From an uncultured Holophagales bacterium (GTDB taxonomy: Bacteria > Acidobacteriota > Thermoanaerobaculia > Multivoradales > UBA5704): a stretch of 64,000 nucleotides of DNA. Both the position numbers and the translations under genes were made by a program. Where the stretch lies: NCBI GenBank assembly GCA_963842525.1, contig CAWJGT010000014.1:160001-224000 (forward strand), read 5' to 3'. A model generated the notes under the pieces. The model ran no database searches and was not told the DNA's origin. It saw only the letters and a program-made list of their open reading frames with translations. Shown here piece by piece: positions 1 through 10,107 of this stretch (within the stretch, counting starts at the first letter, position 1; each line of letters begins with the position of its first letter).

Positions 1-286
1 CCTTGCCTGCACACGCCCTGCGTGAGATCATCCTTCCCAAGAGAGATGGTCATGCTCCACGCAAGCCCCAGGAAAAAACCGTGCCAGTCAAAAATGATGC
101 CAACTCAAAAATGGCATTTTGTCAACGGGGTAACGGCGGAAGAGTCAACTGCTGGAAACACAAGGCTTGCAGCCATCAACGGAGCGGAAAAACGACGTCC
201 CGGAGGGCCCGCGCGAGGGCCAAAAAGGGGGGTAACGGCGAAGCACAGGTTAAGTGGCTTGGAATCAAGGGCTTGGAAAGGCGAGG
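1..286 (+). promoter_or_regulatory. CRISPR leader 1 (truncated by window start)
   Basis: Directly precedes the first repeat. Homologous to the leaders at 3238-3682 and 6558-7002 (shared blocks such as CCAGGAAAAAACCGTGCCAGTCAAAAATGATGCCAACTCAAAAATGGCA and GGAATCAAGGGC.TGGAAAGGCGAG). Confidence 0.85.
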
Positions 287-1534
287 GTCCCAATTGACCA
301 GAGCAGTACGGTGGGATTGCGACCAGCTCGACGCCCGAAGGATAGCCGTCATCCCCTAGAACGTCCCAATTGACCAGAGCAGTACGGTGGGATTGCGACT
401 AGACCTACAGATTCGGAGGAGACGCAGTTTGCGCCCGTCCCAATTGACCAGAGCAGTACGGTGGGATTGCGACGCACCAGTTCGCTAAATGAGGCACAAA
501 TGCTTTCTGCCGTCCCAATTGACCAGAGCAGTACGGTGGGATTGCGACCTGGCGGGCCGGCTGGTGGCTCTTGCTCCCCACGGCGTCCCAATTGACCAGA
601 GCAGTACGGTGGGATTGCGACGCGGTCAGACCGCCGGGGGTGCACTCTCCTGACCGTGCGGTCCCAATTGACCAGAGCAGTACGGTGGGATTGCGACTCG
701 CCGTGAGCCGGGGTCGCCAGATTGACGGGGATGGCCGTCCCAATTGACCAGAGCAGTACGGTGGGATTGCGACCTATCGCCCGTGAAACTCGGACATGCC
801 CAGGAGGTTCCGCGTCCCAATTGACCAGAGCAGTACGGTGGGATTGCGACTTCTTGAGAGTGAGCTTGCCGGCGGGCGCTCCCGCTGCCGTCCCAATTGA
901 CCAGAGCAGTACGGTGGGATTGCGACGCAAGTTGCGCAGCATCGCCACTCGTGCCTCGCGCCAAGTCCCAATTGACCAGAGCAGTACGGTGGGATTGCGA
1001 CCTGGTCGGCCACCGGGACGTTGGTCGTGGCGACGGTGGTCGTGTCCCAATTGACCAGAGCAGTACGGTGGGATTGCGACTTCTCGAGCGCCACTCCTAA
1101 GATAGGCTCCATTCCTGTCCCAATTGACCAGAGCAGTACGGTGGGATTGCGACTGAGCGGAGTCGGGCTTGAACGACGTCGACGAGAAACTCAGTCCCAA
1201 TTGACCAGAGCAGTACGGTGGGATTGCGACCCAAAGTCTTGCCGCAAGCAGACGGTGTTCCCTCAATGCGTCCCAATTGACCAGAGCAGTACGGTGGGAT
1301 TGCGACTTCTCGATCGGGGTCTCCTCGCCAGCCTCGAGAGGCAGTGCCGTCCCAATTGACCAGAGCAGTACGGTGGGATTGCGACTTCTACCATGGCTGC
1401 CGCCGGAACTGCGCTCGCCGCGCAGTCCCAATTGACCAGAGCAGTACGGTGGGATTGCGACTTCTCTGGGCCGGACGTCGATGACGGGCTCTGCGTAGTC
1501 CCAATTGACCAGAGCAGTACGGTGGGATTGCGAC
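287..1534 (+). CRISPR. CRISPR array 1: 17 repeats GTCCCAATTGACCAGAGCAGTACGGTGGGATTGCGAC (37 bp), 16 spacers
   Basis: Identical direct repeats with unique spacers of about 36-42 bp. Orientation from leader position and the ATTG-N-GAC 3' end. Confidence 0.98.
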
Positions 1535-1638
1535 GGGGCTTACGCCCCTCGCACGTCCTGTCGCCCCGAAGGGGCTCTCAGGTAAGGGTGGGCTCGCGTT
1601 GACGTAGATGGCGAGATCCCTCTCTGGCGGCACGGCGG

Positions 1639-1751
1639 CCCTGGGAGCGCGGGCGTCCCGCCCGCCCCACGGTCCTTGTACTTACGTTGGGCTGCCGGCA
1701 AGGCACCGGTCGATGAAAGTCCGGGCGGGCGGGACGCCCGCGCTCCCAGGG
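1639..1751. repeat. REP-like inverted pair (CCCTGGGAGCGCGGGCGTCCCGCCCGC ... GCGGGCGGGACGCCCGCGCTCCCAGGG)
   Basis: Long inverted repeat between the array and RT-cas1. Confidence 0.75.
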
Positions 1752-1858
1752 AAGAAACCCCGGCATTGCTTCCCGCAACCTGCTATACTTCTTTCCAGGC
1801 GAGGATTCTTTCTGGATACGACTGCTTCCCGTTGGAAGCGGAACAGGAGAGCCTTGCC

Positions 1859-2968
1859 ATGCTCGACACGATTGCCGAACGCTCCAACCTCCGGCGGGCG
1901 TTCGAACGGGTACGGGAAAACCACGGATGCCGTGGTGCCGACGGCATGACGGTCGGCCGGTTTGCCACAGACCTGGAGGTTGAGATCGACCGCCTCCAGG
2001 ACCGCCTGCTGCGCCGCTGCTACCACCCCTTCCCCCTGCTCCAGATCCCGGTTCCAAAACGCAGCGGCAACGGCACCCGGTATCTGTGCGTCCCGACGGT
2101 GCGTGACCGGGTGGTCCAGACCGCCGTGGACCTGGTCGTCCGCCCAACCTTCGAAGCCGAATTCGAGGACTGCAGCTATGCGTTCCGCAAGGGCCGCTCG
2201 GTGCGCGATGCGGTTCGCAAGGTGGCTGAGCTGCGCGATCAGGGCTACCGCTGGCTGGTCGACGCGGACATCGATGACTGTTTTGGCAGCATTCCCCATA
2301 CCCCTCTTCTCACACGGCTCGCGCGGCTGCCATTTTCGGAGGACGTGCTCGGCCTTTTCGAGCTCTGGGTGCGCACCGAGACGGAAAAAGGCGTTCCGCA
2401 AGGAGGATCGAAGCGTGCTCTACCCTGGATGCCCTGCGGGGTCTGGAAGGCAGCGCGGCCGCCGCCTACTTCCAGGCGCTGGAAGCGATGATCCCCCAAG
2501 GGCTCGGCTTTGAAGGCCGCCAGCGGCGACCGCCCCGCGATCCCGTCAACGCGCTGCTCTCCTTTGGTTATGTCCTGGTGGGCGACGAGCTTCCAGTCGC
2601 TGCTCGACGGCATCGGCTTCGATCCCTTCATCGGTTTCCTCCATCGGCTCGACTATGGCCGCCCGTCCCTGGCGCTCGATCTCCTGGAGGAATTCCGGCC
2701 AGCCCTGGTGGACCGCTTCACCGCAAGGCTTCTCAACAACCAGATCCTCGGCCGGAAGGATTTCTTCACCACCTCCGAAGGTGGCCTCAACCTGGGACGG
2801 GAGGGCAAGCACCGCTACTTCCTGGAGTATGAGAAGGAAATGAGCACGCCACTGGAGATCGAAGGACAGAGCCTCACCTTCCGCCAAATCTTCCGCCGCC
2901 AGGCCGACCGTCTTGCCGCAGCGTTGACAAAAGATGAGCCCTACGAGAGCTTCCGGCTGCCATGCTGA
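1859..2968 (+). pseudogene. cas1: RT-Cas1 fusion, internally deleted and frameshifted
   Basis: Group II intron-like RT N-half (GADG, PKRSG..R.LCVPTVRDRVVQ, SYAFRKGRS, DADIDDCF, GVPQG). At about 2404-2407 it jumps out of frame into the Cas1 C-half (LRGLEGSAAAAYF, RRPPRDPVNALLSFGY). A +1 shift at about 2591 then gives DPFIGFLH, SLALDLLEEFRP. The YxDD motif and Cas1 N-terminus are absent. Confidence 0.9.
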
Positions 2969-3237
2969 TCCTCATCTCCTACGACATCTCGGACGACCGC
3001 CGCCGCACCAAGCTGGCACACACCCTGAAGGACTTCGGGCAGAGGGTCCAGTACTCCGTCTTTGAGTGCCGGCTGAAGGAGGAACAGCTCACCCGTCTCC
3101 AGGCGAGGGTCACGGCCCTGATCGATACCGAGGAAGACAGTGTCCGTATCTACCGTCTCTGCGCCGAGTGCGCCGACCGCCTGGAGATCCTGGGCCTCGG
3201 CCGGCCCACCCAGGATCCGGATGTCTACATGCTCTAG
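2962..3237 (+). CDS. cas2: CRISPR-associated endonuclease Cas2
   Basis: ISYDISDDRRR ... GQRVQYSVFEC ... DSVRIY motifs, 91 aa, overlaps the cas1 stop. Confidence 0.97.
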   Translation: MLILISYDISDDRRRTKLAHTLKDFGQRVQYSVFECRLKEEQLTRLQARVTALIDTEEDSVRIYRLCAECADRLEILGLGRPTQDPDVYML

Positions 3238-3682
3238 GCTCCACCCGTCCAACAATTTCCCAACGAACCGTGTCATAGAGAGTAGAGGAGGGAAGATGGC
3301 ACCGCAGGACCGGCCTGCCGCCACCCTCCTCCGGCCGCGGCAATGGCCTGTCCTCGCCCGCCACCCGCGGCCGCTCTTTGACAAAAAGAACAACGGCGGC
3401 TCAGACCCTTGCACGCTGACGCTGGACATGAGATCATCCTGCCTCAGGCAAACAGGCGGTCACCCAGGAAAAAACCGTGCCAGTCAAAAATGATGCCAAC
3501 TCAAAAATGGCATTCTGTCAACGGGGTAACGGCGGAAGAGCCAAATACTGGAAACACAAGAGTTACGACCATGAACGGAGCTGAAAAACGACATCCCAGA
3601 GGGCCCGCGCGAGGGCCAAAAAGGGGGGTAACGGCGAAGCACAGGTTAAGTGGCCTGGAATCAAGGGCCTGGAAAGGCGAGG
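3238..3682 (+). promoter_or_regulatory. CRISPR leader 2
   Basis: Between cas2 and array 2; nearly identical to 6558-7002. Confidence 0.85.
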
Positions 3683-5880
3683 GTCCCAATTGACCAGAGC
3701 AGTACGGTGGGATTGCGACCATGGCCATTATTACGGGGGCGGGCGTGTCATTACAGCGGTCCCAATTGACCAGAGCAGTACGGTGGGATTGCGACGTCTG
3801 GGTGGTGGTAGTCATCGATCTGTCCTCCTGGTGGTCCCAATTGACCAGAGCAGTACGGTGGGATTGCGACTACCGGCCGCCAGAGAGGCGGGGATCGCCC
3901 CATGGAATTGTCCCAATTGACCAGAGCAGTACGGTGGGATTGCGACCTACAATAATGCGGCCCGCACCTTGGTGCCGACCGGGAAGTCCCAATTGACCAG
4001 AGCAGTACGGTGGGATTGCGACTTCTGATGCCTAGGGACGTCTTGACGGGCGTCATTGGTCAGTCCCAATTGACCAGAGCAGTACGGTGGGATTGCGACG
4101 AGAGTAGTGTCCATCTTATTTATTAAGTAGCATCTCTAGTCCCAATTGACCAGAGCAGTACGGTGGGATTGCGACTATCATCGTCTGGATTTCGACTAAT
4201 GTTGACTCTAAATCCGTCCCAATTGACCAGAGCAGTACGGTGGGATTGCGACTTTCTGCTGTAGAAACCCATCAGCGCGGCCAGGAACGTCAGGTCCCAA
4301 TTGACCAGAGCAGTACGGTGGGATTGCGACCAAACGTGAGTCTTGCTCGCCTGCCCTCCGTTGTCGCTCAAGTCCCAATTGACCAGAGCAGTACGGTGGG
4401 ATTGCGACGAGGACGGGCCGGCCGGGCCGGCCGGCGTCCTGTACCGGATCATCTCCGTCCCAATTGACCAGAGCAGTACGGTGGGATTGCGACCCTTTCT
4501 CTTCGAGCGGAACATCTGCAGCTTGATTTGCGTCCCAATTGACCAGAGCAGTACGGTGGGATTGCGACTAAGAGGACGGAGAGAGGATAGAGCAGTAGCA
4601 CGAGTCCCAATTGACCAGAGCAGTACGGTGGGATTGCGACTTTCTGATGAGACAGAAAACAATCAGAATCGTGTTCCACTTCCGTTCCGTCCCAATTGAC
4701 CAGAGCAGTACGGTGGGATTGCGACGATCCGGACCAGCGAGGGGAGGAACGGGCAGGGCCGGGTCCCAATTGACCAGAGCAGTACGGTGGGATTGCGACT
4801 TCTGGGCAGTAATAGGTGAGCATACAAAGAAAATAAGAGCGTCCCAATTGACCAGAGCAGTACGGTGGGATTGCGACGAACGACAGGTCGTCTGTCCAGA
4901 AGCGAAGAATGCAGCGGTCCCAATTGACCAGAGCAGTACGGTGGGATTGCGACGAGGACAGCAGGGCGATGATGATGCCCGGTGCCAGGTCCCAATTGAC
5001 CAGAGCAGTACGGTGGGATTGCGACTCATTGGTGAGGGTATCGTACCTCTGGCCGTAGACCTGCAGTCCCAATTGACCAGAGCAGTACGGTGGGATTGCG
5101 ACTTTTTTGCGATCGCCTTGAGGGTGCTGATGGTGTCGTCCCAATTGACCAGAGCAGTACGGTGGGATTGCGACTTCTGCGGCGGCCAGGACGACCAGGA
5201 TGATGGCGACGGCGACGTCCCAATTGACCAGAGCAGTACGGTGGGATTGCGACTCCGCTCCATGAGAGTAGATAGCCATGCTAGGAGGCATGGTCCCAAT
5301 TGACCAGAGCAGTACGGTGGGATTGCGACCACGCTCCTTGGAGGCGGCCGAGGCCACCGCCACCGCCCGGCCGAGTCCCAATTGACCAGAGCAGTACGGT
5401 GGGATTGCGACTTCTCTCCCATGAGCCTCCAAGACTTCTCCGTGGGTCGTCGTCCCAATTGACCAGAGCAGTACGGTGGGATTGCGACCTCAATGTCTCG
5501 AACCCGGGAACCCGCGACAACTTGAAGGTCGGGCCGTCCCAATTGACCAGAGCAGTACGGTGGGATTGCGACTTCTGGAACTCCGGGGCGTCGGCGTTGG
5601 TCGTGGTGGTGGTCGTCCCAATTGACCAGAGCAGTACGGTGGGATTGCGACGTCGCCGCGATACTGCTCCTGGTCGGCGGCGGTGCCGCGTTCGTCCCAA
5701 TTGACCAGAGCAGTACGGTGGGATTGCGACCTCCGGCTCTTCGATCCTGGGAATGTTCCAGTACCTGGTCCCAATTGACCAGAGCAGTACGGTGGGATTG
5801 CGACGCAGCCGATCTTGGCGAGCGCAGCCACAAGCGTCATGTCGTCCCAATTGACTAGAGCAGTACGGTGGGATTGCGAC
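3683..5880 (+). CRISPR. CRISPR array 2: 29 repeats, 28 spacers (about 35-48 bp)
   Basis: Same 37-bp repeat. The terminal repeat (5844-5880) carries a C>T change, which supports + orientation. Confidence 0.98.
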
Positions 5881-5909
5881 TTGCGGGTCTCCCCTTCGTC
5901 CAGGTCGGC

Positions 5910-6423
5910 CTGCGGTGACTTGCAGTGGTGCCGCGGGACCGACAGGATTCACCACGGTGCCATAGACGCTCACTGCGGTGGCGCGCAGTGGTCCCGCGGG
6001 ACCGGCAGGAGCCACCACGGTGCCATAGACGCTCACTGCGGTGGCGCGCAGTGGTCCCGCGGGACCGGCAGGAGCCACCACGGGACCATGGACGCTCACT
6101 GCGGTGGCGCGCAGTGGTCCCGCGGGACCGGCAGGAGCCACCACGGGACCATGGACGCTCACTGCGGTGGCGCGCAGTGGTCCCGCGGGACCGGCAGGAG
6201 CCACCACAGGACCATGGACGCTCACTGCGGTGGCGCGCAGTGGTCCCGCGGGACCGGCAGGAGCCACCACAGGACCATGGACGCTCACTGCGGTGGCGCG
6301 CAATGGTCCCGCGGGACCGGCAGGAGCCACCACGGGACCATGGACGCTCACTGCGGTGGCGCGCAGTGGTCCCGCGGGACCGGCAGGAGCCACCACGGGA
6401 CCATGGACGCTCACTGCGGTGAC
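5910..6423. repeat. 63-bp tandem repeat, about 8 copies, built of three related 21-bp subunits
   Basis: Unit CACTGCGGTGGCGCGCAGTGG-TCCCGCGGGACCGGCAGGAGC-CACCACGGGACCATGGACGCT; contains the palindrome GGTCCCGCGGGACC. Confidence 0.95.
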
Positions 6424-6557
6424 CGAGGGTCACGGCCTTGATCGACATCGAGGAGGACAGCGTCCGCATCTACCGTCTCTGCGCCGAGTGCGCCGACCGC
6501 CTGGAGATCCAAGGCCTCGGCCGGCCCACCCAGGATCCGGATGTCTACATGCTCTAG
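6424..6557 (+). pseudogene. cas2: Duplicated 3' fragment of cas2
   Basis: RVTALIDIEEDSVRIYRLCAECADRLEIQGLGRPTQDPDVYML*, a copy of 3104-3237 with a few substitutions; no 5' end. Confidence 0.92.
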
Positions 6558-7002
6558 GCTCCACCCGTCCAACAATTTCCCAACGAACCGTGTCATAGAG
6601 AGTAGAGGAGGGAAGATGGCACCGCAGGACCGGCCTGCCGCCACCCTCCTCCGGCCGCGGCAATGGCCTGTCCTCGCCCGCCACCCGCGGCCGCTCTTTG
6701 ACAAAAAGAACAACGGCGGCTCAGACCCTTGCAGGCTGACGCTGGACATGAGATCATCCTGCCTCAGGCAAACAGGCGGTCACCCAGGAAAAAACCGTGC
6801 CAGTCAAAAATGATGCCAACTCAAAAATGGCATTCTGTCAATGGGGTAACGGCGGAAGAGCCAAATACTGGAAACACAAGAGTTACGACCATGAACGGAG
6901 CTGAAAAACGACGTCCCAGAGGGCCCGCGCGAGGGCCAAAAAGGGGGGTAACGGCGAAGCACAGGTTAAGTGGCCTGGAATCAAGGGCCTGGAAAGGCGA
7001 GA
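6558..7002 (+). promoter_or_regulatory. CRISPR leader 3
   Basis: Near-identical copy of 3238-3682 at offset 3320. Confidence 0.85.
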
Positions 7003-8070
7003 GTCCCAATTGACCAGAGCAGTACGGTGGGATTGCGACATGGCTCAAGTGTGTGCCTCCCCTTTCAGGCTGATCTCGTCCCAATTGACCAGAGCAGTAC
7101 GGTGGGATTGCGACTCCACCATCGCGACCGGCGGCGTCGTCCTCAACATGGTGGTCCCAATTGACCAGAGCAGTACGGTGGGATTGCGACTCGATCTCCA
7201 CCGGCTGTCCCACTGTGGCGGGAGCGGTGCTCGCGTCCCAATTGACCAGAGCAGTACGGTGGGATTGCGACGTGATCAACCCCCAGGCGCCAGCCTCTGG
7301 AATGAGCTGGTCCCAATTGACCAGAGCAGTACGGTGGGATTGCGACGCCCCAGGCCTTCTTGTCCCCCCGGGAGCCGTAGGCTTCGTCCCAATTGACCAG
7401 AGCAGTACGGTGGGATTGCGACTCTGCTCCGGAAGATCGCTTGACTCGGTCTTGCAGGCCGAAGGTCCCAATTGACCAGAGCAGTACGGTGGGATTGCGA
7501 CTCTGTGAAAATCTTGGAGGCGGTTGCCATCTGGGCTTGCTCCTCGCCGTCCCAATTGACCAGAGCAGTACGGTGGGATTGCGACTTCTCAATTGACGTC
7601 GACGCTTTGCCCAGGAGCAAATCCCGGGACGGTCCCAATTGACCAGAGCAGTACGGTGGGATTGCGACTTCTGCGTTGTACATGTTCTGGAGGCTTCTTA
7701 CTGTTTCTGTTCCGAGTCCCAATTGACCAGAGCAGTACGGTGGGATTGCGACTATGATCCCCCTTATCCAGCTTTCCAGCTCTACACCCGGGAGAAAGTC
7801 CCAATTGACCAGAGCAGTACGGTGGGATTGCGACATCGTTCCCGGGTGCGCAGCCGGAAGGCGGGAAAGATCGGCCGTCCCAATTGACCAGAGCAGTACG
7901 GTGGGATTGCGACTTCTCCTGGACGGTGTCTCCGTCGAAAAGACCTTCGCTCGTCCCAATTGACCAGAGCAGTACGGTGGGATTGCGACGATGGTTTTGT
8001 CCGATCACATGGTTCAAACACACTCGGCCATGAGTCCCAATTGACCAGAGCAGTACGGTGGGATTGCGAC
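7003..8070 (+). CRISPR. CRISPR array 3: 14 repeats, 13 spacers
   Basis: Same 37-bp repeat. Confidence 0.98.
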
Positions 8071-8112
8071 GACCTCCTTTCTTCCCCTGAAGGGTCGCGA
8101 GGATTTTGCGCG

Positions 8113-8932
8113 GAGCTGCTGCCGCCCCTCCGGGGCTTGGAAATGTTTTTGGCTCTGTACCCGGGGTCGGCGCTCCTCCGTCGCGCCTGACCCCGGGCTA
8201 CACGCCGCCACCCCCTCCGGGGGTTCTCTTTTTTGCCAATGTAACGACCGTTGATCGAATTCACCAGAGCAGTACAGTGGGATTGCGACTACATTTTGAT
8301 CAGAGTGGTGTCTACGTCGAAGTCGCCGCCCTCCTCCCAATTGACCAGAGTAATTCGGTGGGATTGCGACATGGAGGCGGGACGGACTGGGGCGACGGCG
8401 AGGCGCTTGCTCTACGCACGAACGGGTGGCTGTGGAATGGCCCCGGAGGGGCCGCGGCGTGTAGCCCGGGGTCAGCCGCGACGAAGGAGCGGCGACCCCG
8501 GGTAGGGAGACGAAAACATTCTCAAGCCCCGTAGGGGCGGCAGCCGTTTCCGGACCGCGCCTCAGTCGAGCAGATACCGTTCGTCAAACTCGATCTTGTT
8601 CTTCCGCAGCAGTGCGATCAGCTCGTCCTTGAACGAGAGCCGCGCATGGTGCTCTTCCTGGGTCCGGATGTAACGGCGGATCGCCGGCACCTGAGAGTCC
8701 TGGATGAACGGTGCGCGGTGTTTCGTGCTGAAGATGATGTGGAAGAGGAGATTGGTGAAGGTGTTTGCCATGGGGGCGGATTATCTCAGATGCGAGGGCA
8801 CGCGCAAGAGGTGATTCCGAGCTGCTGCCGCCCCTCCGGGGCTTGGAAATGTTTTTGGCTCTGTACCCGGGGTCGGCGCTCCTCCGTCGCGCCTGACCCC
8901 GGGCTACACGCCGCCACCCCCTCCGGGGGTTC
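8113..8932. repeat. REP elements at 8113-8227, 8440-8544 (inverted) and 8819-8932
   Basis: GCCCCTCCGGGGC and ACCCGGGGTC...GACCCCGGGCTAC hairpin cassettes; copies 1 and 3 are near-identical. Confidence 0.85.
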
Positions 8933-8974
8933 TTTTGATCAATGTTGACCAGGGCAGTACGGTGGGATTGCGAC
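8253..8974 (+). CRISPR. Three degenerate trailer repeats (8253-8289, 8334-8370, 8938-8974) interrupted by REPs and a transposase remnant
   Basis: All keep the 3' GGGATTGCGAC, with mismatches in the rest of the repeat. Confidence 0.85.
8562..8771 (-). pseudogene. tnpA: IS200-like/REP-associated Y1 transposase, internally deleted
   Basis: N-terminus (FHIIFSTKHR) is joined directly to the C-terminus (SQV..IRRYIRTQEEHH). The HUH core is missing relative to the full homolog at 44224-44694. Confidence 0.85.
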
Positions 8975-9026
8975 TTTCTGACAGGAGAGGGAGTAGGCTG
9001 GCGCTGCGGCGCCTTCGTGGGCAGAG

Positions 9027-9392
9027 CTAGGCGCCAGGGCGCCGGATGCGGAGACCTTGGGGCGAGGCTACGGCGAGGAGGCCCGAGAGCGTCCGGAGAT
9101 CGGAGATGGTTCTCAAAACCTGATTGACGAGCTCGACCAAGGGACGGACTCCATCCTCGGAGGGACGTAGAAGCAAAATGCCGCCATGGCTCCCAGGTGG
9201 ATATTTCCTCACGTCGCCGAACCCTTTGTCTGCGGTGACCAGAAATTGCCGATGCTGCTGCACCCTCTCCCAAAGCTTGGGGTCCTTGAAGCCACCCATC
9301 CCTTGCTCCGAGACGGCGCTGCACTCATAGCCGCCCTCACGCAGCAGCACCGACACTGCCCGGGGAAGATCTTCGTCAACTTTGATGTGCAT
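9027..9392 (-). CDS. DUF5615/PIN-like toxin
   Basis: KVDEDLP...D..LW.....FLVTADKGFGD pattern; downstream of a DUF433 gene. Confidence 0.85.
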   Translation of the reverse strand: MHIKVDEDLPRAVSVLLREGGYECSAVSEQGMGGFKDPKLWERVQQHRQFLVTADKGFGDVRKYPPGSHGGILLLRPSEDGVRPLVELVNQVLRTISDLRTLSGLLAVASPQGLRIRRPGA

Positions 9393-9639
9393 CGGCAGCG
9401 GGCGCGGCCAGGGGGGCCACGATGTCCTGGCTCAAGACGGCGGCGGCATAGGCCAGCGCCGCCAACAGGTCTTCCTCCGCGAGTTGAGGGTAGGAGTCCA
9501 GGATCTCTTCGGGCCTCATGCCGTCGGCCAAGCTGCCGATCAGGGTTCTGACGGGGATGCGGGTCCCCTTGATGCAGGGATCTCCATGGTGGAGATCCTC
9601 GGCAACCACGATGCGATCCTGCCACCGGATACGACTCAT
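9376..9639 (-). CDS. DUF433 antitoxin
   Basis: HGDPCIKGTRIPV...EEILDSYPQL..EDL.AALAYA motif. Confidence 0.9.
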   Translation of the reverse strand: MSRIRWQDRIVVAEDLHHGDPCIKGTRIPVRTLIGSLADGMRPEEILDSYPQLAEEDLLAALAYAAAVLSQDIVAPLAAPAADAHQS

Positions 9640-9711
9640 CGAAGCACCTCCTAGAAGAGGCTATCACGGCGCCGCGTTCAGATGGGGCTTGACGGTCCGC
9701 GAGCGAGGGCT

Positions 9712-10107
9712 CTATTCCTGGGGAGACGGCTGGAAGAGATAGAGGGTGATGCCGTTGGGGTCCTGAACGCAGAAGGTGCGATGTCCCCAGCTCTGGGTCT
9801 TCAGCTCCTGGGAAATCTGCAGGCCGTTCTCGACGGACCGCCGGTGTTGCGCCTCGACGTCTTCGACCTCGATGACCATGAATGCGCCTTGGGGAGGCCT
9901 GTGATCCCAGAGGTGGGATGATGCGCCGCTCTCCGGCAGGGCCAGCACTTCGATGATCCCGGAGGCGGCGGCGAACAGGGTCCCGCGGTCGTCGCGATTG
10001 CGATCCCAGAATTCGAGGACGGGAAGCTCCAGGCCTTCGCGATAGAACACGACGGTCGCCTCGTACTTCGGCGTGAAATAGGCGAAACGGAACTCTCCTC
10101 GGCTCAT
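9712..10107 (-). CDS. VOC/glyoxalase family protein
   Basis: FYREGLEL, VEDVEA, WGHRTFCVQDPNG motifs. Confidence 0.9.
   Translation of the reverse strand: MSRGEFRFAYFTPKYEATVVFYREGLELPVLEFWDRNRDDRGTLFAAASGIIEVLALPESGASSHLWDHRPPQGAFMVIEVEDVEAQHRRSVENGLQISQELKTQSWGHRTFCVQDPNGITLYLFQPSPQE

Follow-up and report, generated by a model that had tools for sequence, protein, structure and literature searches.

The question raised by this locus is how a CRISPR adaptation module that retains cas2 and serves three arrays came to have a reverse transcriptase (RT) gene running out of frame into the back part of cas1, and whether its arrays can still be extended. The locus lies at the start of the window, the whole 64,000-nt stretch of DNA that was analysed; coordinates below are those of the window, and all genes, leaders and arrays are on the forward strand. 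A sequence-only reading made earlier had taken it for a broken RT-Cas1 fusion. We suggest, with good confidence, that this module acquired spacers for a type III-D locus and was disabled by one deletion of ~0.8 kb across separate RT and cas1 genes.

The remnant of the RT gene (1859–2404) comprises the N-terminal 182 codons up to and including the GVPQG motif. In profile searches, the frame opening with ATG at 1859 matched positions 1–123 of the 205 in Pfam RVT_1 (E 8.5e-16), positions 2–184 of 353 in the NCBIfam group II RT/maturase model and positions 2–181 of 263 in the PADLOC RT model (E 7e-53); the PADLOC Cas1_IIIb (RT-Cas1) model also matches the remnant (E 2.5e-27). The last homologous stretch is GVPQG itself, at 2390–2404, and an out-of-frame tail of 28 codons follows before the TGA at 2489–2491 (tail 2405–2491). 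When aligned with the intact RT of genome G034 (327 aa, GVPQG at residues 196–200 and YADD at 229–232), the window retains residues 10–200, where the alignment stops, and lacks residues 201–327, YADD among them. A further in-frame loss of nine codons (27 nt) is visible inside the remnant at ~2381–2389; these codons are present in each of the relatives aligned there (G034, L069 and G001). The remnant is 55–72% identical to CRISPR-linked RTs adjoining cas1, and only 31–37% identical to the majority of the 14 further RT matches from its own genome, which by sequence identity makes it a member of the CRISPR-linked clade and not one of the genome's own intron RTs.

Cas1 homology resumes almost immediately after the RT remnant. 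The junction reads GGAGGA (2402–2407), with the last RT codon at 2402–2404 and the first Cas1-homologous codon at 2407. From there the cas1 remnant continues in two pieces. The first (2407–2590, in the frame of 2401) encodes Cas1 residues ~144–205, covers positions 141–209 of the 283 in Pfam Cas_Cas1 (E 7.5e-24) and is 68% identical to residues 148–206 of the G034 Cas1; the second (2591–2968, in the frame of 2570, with its stop at 2966–2968) encodes residues ~206–330, covers Pfam positions 201–283 (E 5.7e-23) and shares its frame with the RT remnant. They are separated by a one-base insertion, CT[T]CCA (2587–2592), which shifts the cas1 frame and may be real or an assembly error: the window has GAG CT[T]C CAG at a place where two relatives have GAG CTC CAG or GAG ATC CAG. 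Should it be an error, the ATG at 2488 could yield a 160-aa C-terminal Cas1 fragment. In total, residues ~144–330 of the 330-aa G034 Cas1 are retained and residues 1 to ~143 are lost, so that Pfam positions 1–140 are absent, the rest is spread over two frames, and there is no native start. The stump still encodes the stretches LRGLEG, GFLH and DLLEEF; LEG, GFLH and DLLEE are the presumed motifs of the Cas1 catalytic region, as in the E. coli protein. Neither stump is interrupted by a stop codon in its own frame. No RT-Cas1 fusion is encoded at this locus, as the RT open frame ends at 2491 and the Cas1 pieces lie in other open frames.

The cas2 gene (2962–3237, 91 aa), whose ATG overlaps the cas1 stop, is intact. 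It matches positions 1–72 of the 74 in Pfam CRISPR_Cas2 (PF09827) with 96 bits and TIGR01573 with 84 bits against a cut-off of 24.5. Full-length matches to it, at 55–81% identity, were found in 16 of 18 related cas2-bearing loci, the gene being split or partial in the other two. Frames, near full-length cas2 matches and alignment to the G034 proteins thus bear out much of what had been read from the sequence alone: the RT ends after GVPQG and joins the Cas1 C-half out of frame, YxDD, the downstream part of the RT and the Cas1 N-domain are gone, and cas2 is intact. Sizing the deletion by homologs, as that reading had proposed, gave ~794 nt absent from the window relative to the RT and cas1 of G034, which are separate genes. 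A single loss of this size would have cost the RT gene 40% of its length at the 3' end and cas1 43% at the 5' end, taking YADD and all beyond it from the RT and the N-terminal domain from Cas1, and would have joined the stumps out of frame. The RT frame is now predicted to give 182 RT residues and 28 nonsense residues, and the cas1 stump to be left without a proper start. As far as can be predicted, no product encoded at the RT-cas1 remnant is able to reverse-transcribe or to integrate spacers.

Was the ancestor one gene or two? In the nearest relatives examined, RT (~310–330 aa) and cas1 (~330 aa) are distinct genes, closely spaced or overlapping. Reading of the open frames showed them to be separate in G034, G007 and G010, and the closest DNA relative, metagenome locus L069 (72% amino acid identity), has an intact 309-aa RT, a stop, and a cas1 start in another frame. 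Across a survey of 300 genomes of the same bacterial order, the open frames of full-length RT matches measured 325–508 aa in 16 of 16 cases, none reaching fusion length (≥640 aa), and in all 13 of these loci with cas1 present it was a separate gene, which began within ~25 nt of the point where the RT match ends and in many cases overlapped that match. The best 25 matches in a representative protein library were 128–603 aa long, and only one contained Cas1 sequence; this exception is P0014 (271 aa), a chimera that was also made by deletion, and RVT_1 alone was found in each of 11 sampled shorter or non-Cas1 matches from ranks 1–24. True RT-Cas1 fusions begin at rank 26, at 41–48% identity, and all eight sampled matches of 649–800 aa were such fusions, in the same identity range.

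That the fusions are the next-nearest relatives of the window RT (41–48% identity), and that the final cas1 piece happens to be in frame with the RT remnant, could be taken as signs of one ancestral RT-Cas1 fusion gene that underwent an internal deletion. We consider this highly improbable. In relatives at 55–72% identity, a full-length RT is closed by a stop codon and any cas1 present has a start of its own; no full-length RT match of the order has a fusion-length frame; and clades of unfused CRISPR-linked RTs have been published, as a part of Toro et al. 2018 (PMC6013744) describes. The sequence-only reading had itself named separate RT and cas1 genes in homologs as the observation that would overturn its fusion, and this is what the homologs have. 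We conclude that, to judge from these comparisons, the ancestor is a pair of separate RT and cas1 genes. Since the two are separate in the nearest relatives examined, the RT-cas1 junction was made by deletion: the window keeps the order RT, cas1, cas2, array, and the boundary between the first two is what has been lost. Two members of the same genus could not supply the ancestral sequence: the RT of G001 shares just 55% identity across 218 aligned columns and is cut off by a contig end, and G005 has cas1-cas2 and no RT within the fetched locus.

The deletion is seen in one assembly (96.4% complete, 34 contigs, 3.4% contamination), and this assembly contains base-level errors. The secA gene on contig C23 is broken over three frames, at least one of the breaks being a plain +1 insertion; and a second secA-like gene, on contig C21, is broken at two places. 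For rpoB, model positions 1–69 sit in a separate 88-aa open frame, which may be a frameshift. A +1 insertion like the one at ~2590 is thus present in secA, and another in the Cas7-Csx10 gene of the neighbouring effector locus, so the one-base frameshift at ~2590 may be an assembly error. The second lesion, at 2591, therefore stands as a change of frame, but its reality is doubtful, and single-base frameshifts in this genome should not be taken as biology. As a gauge of indel noise, four group II intron copies, aligned over ~1.9 kb or less, each showed 5–16 mismatches and 0–6 gap positions; the secA breaks were the more telling of the two comparisons. One public soil-metagenome run (0.06 of sampled words), searched at ≥80% likeness, returned only pieces of 37–51 nt with 3–8 differences, none of them across 2404 or 2591, which are uninformative on the junction or on expression.

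Could the 0.8-kb gap itself have come from the assembler, or from a minority variant, in an organism that has an intact RT and cas1? The errors in essential genes would allow for this, as would the possibility that the genome comes from a mixed sample (3.4% contamination). However, the errors examined at sequence level are single-base insertions and not kilobase losses. The stretch 1859–3103 has no other genomic copy and the junction is not within repeated DNA, so a collapse by the assembler has no substrate; nor is the missing segment found on any other contig. Comparable deletions are present in assemblies of other species (G240, G024 and G017), and the extra 27-nt in-frame loss in the RT stump fits real decay. 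An artefact is therefore quite unlikely, and the 0.8-kb deletion, although it rests on one assembly, is probably real. Given 96.4% completeness and 34 contigs, an intact copy could lie in unassembled sequence.

Deletions running from RT to cas1 were found in four of the 25 related species surveyed. Losses across the two genes occurred independently in G240, G024, G017 and the metagenomic protein P0014, and all three adaptation genes are uninterrupted in only 10 of the 25 species, so RT-linked adaptation modules seem to be lost often in this bacterial order. Such loss would be relevant to the costs and benefits of carrying the RT. In G240 and P0014 the product is again a chimera of an RT N-part and a Cas1 C-part, joined in frame in P0014. 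Five RT-side breakpoints fall within residues 187–211, around motif 4, and Cas1 codons 205–207 contain the Cas1-side junctions of G240 and P0014 and also the +1 insertion of the window. The window and G240 are only 56–64% identical, which makes their lesions independent. Microhomology was considered as a cause: an 8-nt match (GCTCGACG or CCTCGACG) links the RT stretch 'LFLD' with the Cas1 stretch 'LLDG' in five of eight intact loci processed. The observed junctions lie off this match, so it fails to explain the deletions.

From these coincidences one could take the chimera to be more than debris and to arise repeatedly, either because the site is fragile or because selection favours a truncated protein that is tolerated. 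The repeated RT-front, Cas1-back architecture, the clustered breakpoints on both sides and the independence of the window and G240 lesions all speak for it. Against it, the window and G240 junctions are both out of frame, so no common protein can come from them; the window's +1 is perhaps an assembly error; deletions of this kind were found in none of 49 broader metagenome loci; and the pattern was seen post hoc, in few cases. We regard a recurrent product as very unlikely. Somewhat less doubtful, though still no better than a tentative idea, is that deletions joining the front of the RT to the back of cas1 are non-random, through site-specific fragility or through repeated selection to switch off a self-sampling module. 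In the first version, breaks would occur at a particular sequence and be repaired by end joining with small insertions; in the second, an adaptation module sampling host genes would be switched off repeatedly, for which one may compare the three spacers of the window that are perfect matches to the host chromosome.

The leader of array 1 (47–286), which extends upstream beyond the window, has a conserved core of ~240 nt. Its alignment with five further leader copies from the genome has a mean column identity of 84%, and it shares 93% identity with leaders 2 and 3 across 220 nt. It is followed by array 1 (287–1534), with 17 identical 37-nt repeats and 16 spacers. Between this array and the RT remnant, outside the module, is a self-complementary hairpin (MITE/REP-like dispersed repeat, 1639–1751) with >40 copies at 72–88% identity on other contigs. 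Downstream of cas2, a leader that aligns with the other copies (3238–3682) precedes array 2 (3683–5880; 29 repeats, the final one with one mismatch, and 28 spacers). After 8.1 copies of a 63-nt minisatellite of a genome-dispersed family (5910–6421), a duplicated segment (6424–7002) repeats the final 134 nt of cas2 and leader 2 and acts as the leader of array 3. It is 98.1% identical to 3104–3681 over 578 nt (cas2 part 94%, leader part 99.3%). Array 3 itself (7003–8070) has 14 repeats and 13 spacers, with degenerate repeats 3' of it at ~8253, 8334 and 8938.

Counted over the window at ≤3 mismatches, the 37-nt repeat has 60 copies, where 100 shuffles gave an expectation of 0, and 59 of the 60 are identical. 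The three arrays hold 57 spacers of 35–48 nt, in agreement with the earlier count. The predicted 8-nt crRNA tag of the 37-nt-repeat arrays is ATTGCGAC. With the arrays (287–8070) as query in distant mode, nothing in a phage collection matched at E up to 0.01, and no Rfam family scored above threshold in window positions 1–10000.

The type III assignment of these arrays is supported by the genes directly upstream, where the proposed search for cas10 and cas6 found both. The locus there encodes Cas6, Cas10, a Cas7-Csx10 RAMP protein, Csm2, three Cas7 and a TIR-SAVED protein. The Cas10 (589 aa, with a GGDE motif) is matched by the palm domain model PF22335 (Cas10 palm2) and by the PADLOC Cas10/Cas10d models, and subtype III-D is indicated by matches to TIGR02674 (Csx10), TIGR02581 (Csx7) and PADLOC Cas5_IIId, Csm2 and Cas6, the Csx10 matches being below the NCBIfam cut-off. 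The module thus served three arrays of a type III system, as had been read. The Cas7-Csx10 gene is broken by a +1 insertion in the assembly, at ~153,847 of contig C14. Because leaders, arrays and upstream effector genes remain, the 57 spacers should still be transcribable, processable and usable, and interference probably still works.

Can the arrays still grow? A Pfam Cas1 search of the whole assembly returned, besides the two window pieces, one type I-C cas1 only (TIGR03640, 505 bits against a cut-off of 385), 35% identical to the window Cas1 over 86 aa. Searches for the lost 3' part of the RT and the lost N-domain of Cas1 matched only intron RTs (≤46%) and the I-C Cas1 (34%) in the rest of the assembly, and relocation of the segment was rejected on this ground. 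The suggestion that an intact paralog elsewhere had filled the arrays is likewise weakened, the sole other cas1 in a 96%-complete assembly being type I-C.

That type I-C module, on contig C3, looks complete (cas3, cas5c, cas8c, cas7, cas4, cas1c, cas2); apart from it and that of the window, the assembly has no adaptation module. Its Cas1-Cas2-Cas4 might add spacers to the window arrays in trans, with which the uniform window repeats, as in active arrays, would agree. However, the repeats are unrelated (32 against 37 nt, alike only in ATTG and a final AC at the 3' end), spacer lengths differ (32–38 against 35–48 nt), the 240-nt type III leader was not found beside the I-C array, the Cas1 proteins share only 35% identity, and a TTCT bias at the 5' end of window spacers is missing from I-C spacers. 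Acquisition in trans by this module is therefore unlikely.

The TTCT bias (13 cases) was also considered in its own right. It could not be a retained type I-C 'TTC' PAM, as the fourth base is T in 13 of 13 and the motif is absent from I-C spacers. Nor is it a mark of RT-dependent acquisition, as it also occurs in arrays whose fetched loci have no RT gene (G005, 2 of 19 spacers; G009, 6 of 46) as well as in loci with one (G007, 4 of 25; G034, 2 of 28; G010, 1 of 10; G020, 0 of 10). None of the 12 leader-proximal spacers (four per array) starts with TTCT, a weak, post hoc observation with no such rule in the relatives.

With the genome's only other cas1 being type I-C with a different repeat, the three arrays are most likely a frozen record, in keeping with the earlier proposal that the spacers were recorded before the breakage. 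We infer that they were filled before the deletion. The near-uniform repeats (59 of 60), the 99% identity of leaders 2 and 3 and the stop-free stumps point to a recent loss. An ancestral module of a group-II-intron-related RT, cas1 and cas2, in close or overlapping order, would thus have been cut by a single event, while cas2, leaders, arrays and effector genes persist and the CRISPR memory would no longer be extendable by its own machinery. The outcome would be a naturally 'write-protected' type III memory that keeps its arrays, leaders, cas2 and effectors (Cas7-Csx10 being frameshifted in the assembly), and the locus could serve to ask how long such a memory stays useful and whether the integrase of another system takes over.

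Type III CRISPR-Cas loci without working adaptation genes occur, and the present locus is like them in having effectors and arrays and no functional cas1 of its own; it differs in still having both stumps and an intact cas2, with the loss in mid-course. Compared to the RNA-spacer-acquiring RT-Cas1 fusions that are described, in part, in PMC6821258 (Marinomonas mediterranea, type III-B; Vibrio vulnificus, type III-D), it has in common the related RT and Cas1 families and a type III system. Those fusions, however, are single polypeptides of ~650–800 aa with YADD and Cas1 intact, whereas the window lineage has separate genes and, here, an out-of-frame scar. The closest likeness is to unfused CRISPR RTs (~305–345 aa). 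Group-II-intron-like RTs encoded as genes adjacent to cas1 appear in a section of Silas et al. 2017 (PMC5513706), and clades 9 and 13 are termed 'RTs not fused to Cas1' in a section of Toro et al. 2018 (PMC6013744). The window shares with these the order RT, cas1, cas2, array beside a type III effector locus, and differs in that its RT lacks motif 5 (YADD) onward and its cas1 the N-terminal domain. It is an ordinary decayed example of the known unfused RT, Cas1 and Cas2 arrangement linked to type III-D.

A reading frame that starts at ATG 1859 codes for the N-terminal portion of a reverse transcriptase (RT) akin to group II intron RTs, matching positions 1-123 of 205 in Pfam RVT_1 and 2-184 of 353 in TIGR04416. 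Its last homologous motif is GVPQG (2390-2404), after which the frame runs through 28 unrelated codons to a TGA at 2489-2491. Cas1 coding resumes at 2407 in a frame different from that of the RT (Pfam positions 141-209 of 283), and positions 201-283 are found in a third reading, in the phase of the RT, from ~2590 to the stop at 2966-2968; cas2 is complete (2962-3237) by Pfam and TIGR models. The sequence-only reading, which had described the truncated RT, the out-of-frame Cas1 half, the arrays and the intact cas2, proved accurate in every particular that could be tested. Its deletion was sized by alignment to the intact genes of G034, a relative from the same order. In G034 numbering (GVPQG 196-200, YADD 229-232), the window retains RT residues 10-200 of 327 and Cas1 residues ~144-330 of 330; ~794 nt are lost in the coordinates of G034, where RT and cas1 overlap by 16 nt, and YADD and the N-terminal part of Cas1 have gone with them. 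The junction lies within GGAGGA (2402-2407). Just upstream of it the RT stump also lacks 9 codons (~2381-2389) that are kept in G034, G001, the metagenome locus L069 and the eight intact loci processed. The second frame change in cas1 consists of one extra base, the window having GAG CT[T]C CAG against GAG CTC CAG in G034 and GAG ATC CAG in G007.

These stumps had been taken for a broken RT-Cas1 fusion, and this the relatives contradict. In G034, G007 and G010 the RT closes at a stop and cas1 starts within a few bases of it, in a frame of its own. With the G034 RT as query against 300 genomes from the order, we found an RT at 55% identity or higher in at least 25 species (170 further, weaker matches lie beyond those listed). 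Among the matches listed, the open frames of all 16 full-length RTs span 325-508 aa, which is not long enough for an RT-Cas1 fusion. RT, Cas1 and Cas2 were mapped onto 23 of the loci; in the 13 with both a full-length RT match and cas1, the start of cas1 lies no more than ~25 nt from where the RT match ends, and the two often overlap. The closest DNA relative found, the 1.3-kb metagenome contig L069 (72% protein identity, 77% DNA identity over 447 nt), carries an uninterrupted 309-aa RT that closes at a stop, with cas1 starting after it in a different frame. When the RT stump was scored against 1.84 billion representative proteins, the best 25 were 128-603 aa long and only one contained Cas1 sequence, a protein that is again a chimera made by deletion; fusions of RT and Cas1 (649-800 aa) first appeared at rank 26, with 41-48% identity. 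Pfam searches of a sample agreed with this division: RVT_1 alone in 11 of 11 shorter or non-Cas1 proteins from ranks 1-24, and RVT_1 plus Cas_Cas1 in 8 of 8 long ones. Since RT and cas1 are separate genes in the relatives, the RT-Cas1 junction in the window appears to have been created by deletion rather than by the breaking of a fusion gene. Of the earlier interpretation, the internal deletion stands and the fusion ancestor does not.

Decay of this gene pair seems to be common in the order. RT, cas1 and cas2 are uninterrupted in 10 of the 25 species listed (G290 was outside this examination). Losses spanning both RT and cas1 occur in four: the source genome G000; G240, where residue 211 of the RT meets residue ~205 of Cas1 (L058, 1020-2312); G024, with nearly all of cas1 gone (L055); and G017, with cas1 gone and RT and cas2 partial (L059). 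Smaller lesions comprise an in-frame deletion inside the RT of G010 (L019/L031), one in-frame stop in the RT of each of G276 and G299, a frame change in the RT of G279 and one in cas1 of each of G007, G022, G269 and G042; in G272 no cas1-cas2 lies within 1.5 kb of the RT, and the locus of G001 is cut by a contig end. Assembly errors may account for some of these lesions. Further cases come from two proteins of metagenomic origin, P0014 being an RT-to-Cas1 chimera and P0008 carrying an internal RT deletion; no RT-to-cas1 deletion was seen in 49 broader metagenome loci, mostly from fusion clades. Breakpoints on the RT side fall at residues 187, 200, 201, 203 and 211 of 327, with one further at 236, and Cas1 codons 205-207 are the site of the G240 junction, the P0014 junction and the extra base of the window. 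Protein identity between the window and G240 is only 56-64%, and the deletions in this gene pair in other species are independent; the clustering, noticed after the fact in few cases, is a coincidence for which we have no explanation.

The one public sequencing run found, a soil metagenome containing 6% of the sampled words, aligned to the window only as short mismatched pieces (37-51 nt, 3-8 differences), none of which crossed 2404 or 2591; the reliability of the assembly was gauged on housekeeping genes. rpoC and two dnaE-type genes each matched in a single open frame; secA on contig C23 (G000:C23:266680-268993) is spread over three frames, the first shift being an additional G (GAC[G]GTC) that lies between LDV and VIPTN, both conserved, and a second secA-like gene (G000:C21:94846-96648) is split twice. 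Upstream of the window, one extra G (GAG[G]CTC, L012:13840-13850) breaks a Cas7-Csx10 gene that is a single 666-aa frame in G005, of the same genus. Single-base insertions are a feature of this assembly, and single-base frameshifts in it are unreliable. Given the insertions in secA and Cas7-Csx10, the extra base at ~2590 is doubtful, and we regard a real mutation and assembly noise as about equally probable. The 0.8-kb deletion is very probably real, because it lies in unique sequence, the missing RT/cas1 DNA was found on no other contig when the assembly was searched, and other species have similar deletions.

The interference side of the locus lies just upstream of the window, where a type III-D effector module and the genes preceding it occupy ~2948-19728 of L012 (G000:C14:140001-160000); the cas10 and cas6 that the sequence-only reading had proposed seeking are both there. 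The order is Cas6, a 589-aa Cas10 (GGDE), the Cas7-Csx10 fusion, a Csm2-like small subunit, three Cas7/Csx7, an unknown 275-aa protein and TIR-SAVED, whose gene ends ~270 nt before the window; ahead of the module are a CHAT-SAVED protease, an ECF-type sigma factor, an unknown 277-aa ORF and a 1133-aa TPR-CHAT protein. After the effectors come array 1 behind its leader, the RT/cas1 stumps, cas2, array 2 behind its own leader, a minisatellite with a 63-nt unit, the duplicated end of cas2 with its leader, and array 3. The array 3 leader (6424-7002) duplicates 3104-3682, that is, the last 134 nt of cas2 and the whole leader (98% over 578 nt), so array 3 came from a segmental duplication spanning the junction between cas2 and its leader. 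The minisatellite (5910-6421, 8.1 copies, 96% matches), between array 2 and the cas2 fragment, has a unit that is also found in tandem on many more contigs, C23, C34, C9, C6 and C1 among them. Dispersed short repeats lie beside the arrays (1639-1751; 8113-8290, 8441-8544 and 8819-8975); one is self-complementary, ~113 nt long and present in >40 genome copies, and another family, of ~105-180 nt, lies downstream of array 3. A 69-aa ORF without a Pfam match (8562-8771, minus strand) has ends that we take to resemble the two termini, N and C, of a REP-associated tyrosine transposase whose middle is missing.

The 37-nt repeat, GTCCCAATTGACCAGAGCAGTACGGTGGGATTGCGAC, occurs in 60 copies against none expected in shuffles, and the three arrays of 17, 29 and 14 repeats hold 57 spacers. 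A leader core of ~240 nt has six copies in the genome, three of them in the window; one heads an 8-repeat array on C22 (G000:C22:91142-91940) and two are orphans (C3:978972-979223 and C12:85974-86194), each with a single or degenerate repeat. A degenerate pair of repeats also occurs at C3:808875-808990. The spacers had been ascribed to this module before it broke or to an intact paralog elsewhere. A search of the 9.95-Mb assembly (96.4% complete) with the Pfam Cas1 model gave only one other cas1, in a type I-C locus on C3 (L015, G000:C3:1736001-1756000). That locus looks complete (Cas1c at 505 bits, Cas4, Cas7c, Cas8c, Cas5c, Cas3, Cas2), and might in principle serve the window arrays in trans; its own array has 53 repeats of 32 nt, differing in sequence from the window repeat, with spacers of 32-38 nt, and we consider such service very improbable. 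The type I-C cas3 is read as a 602-aa ORF and a separate 205-aa ORF, a split that may be another assembly frameshift. The simplest reading has all 57 spacers written before the deletion occurred, which would leave the arrays read-only today.

The spacers are 35-48 nt long (mode 39). Directly after the repeat, 13 of the 57 start with TTCT, 2 more with TTTCT and 2 with TCTG; at all remaining spacer positions TTCT occurs only 7 times. In related arrays (L029-L034) TTCT starts 4 of 25 spacers in G007, 2 of 28 in G034, 1 of 10 in G010, 2 of 19 in G005, 0 of 10 in G020 and 6 of 46 in G009. As the bias appears in relatives with and without an RT gene in the retrieved locus, it is a property of the repeat and Cas1-Cas2 family and not of the RT. 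For the V. vulnificus RT-Cas1 module, spacer ends with an AT-rich bias have been described (PMC6821258). The phage collection gave no spacer matches. Three spacers are 100% identical to the cell's own chromosome. One (4409-4456) matches C34:52749-52796, 46-93 nt upstream of a ParB-HTH gene, in ambiguous orientation; the others (5652-5693 and 7115-7153) match C19:378256-378297 and C19:377607-377645, both within one outer-membrane-receptor-like gene and in the sense of its coding strand. Spacers in this sense would not direct a type III complex to mRNA, so their survival is unsurprising. The assembly breaks this C19 gene, too, across several frames.

Unfused CRISPR-linked RTs are among those published by Toro et al. 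2018 (PMC6013744) and Silas et al. 2017 (PMC5513706). The locus appears to belong to this known class of type III adaptation modules with unfused RT, Cas1 and Cas2, as a member inactivated by deletion.
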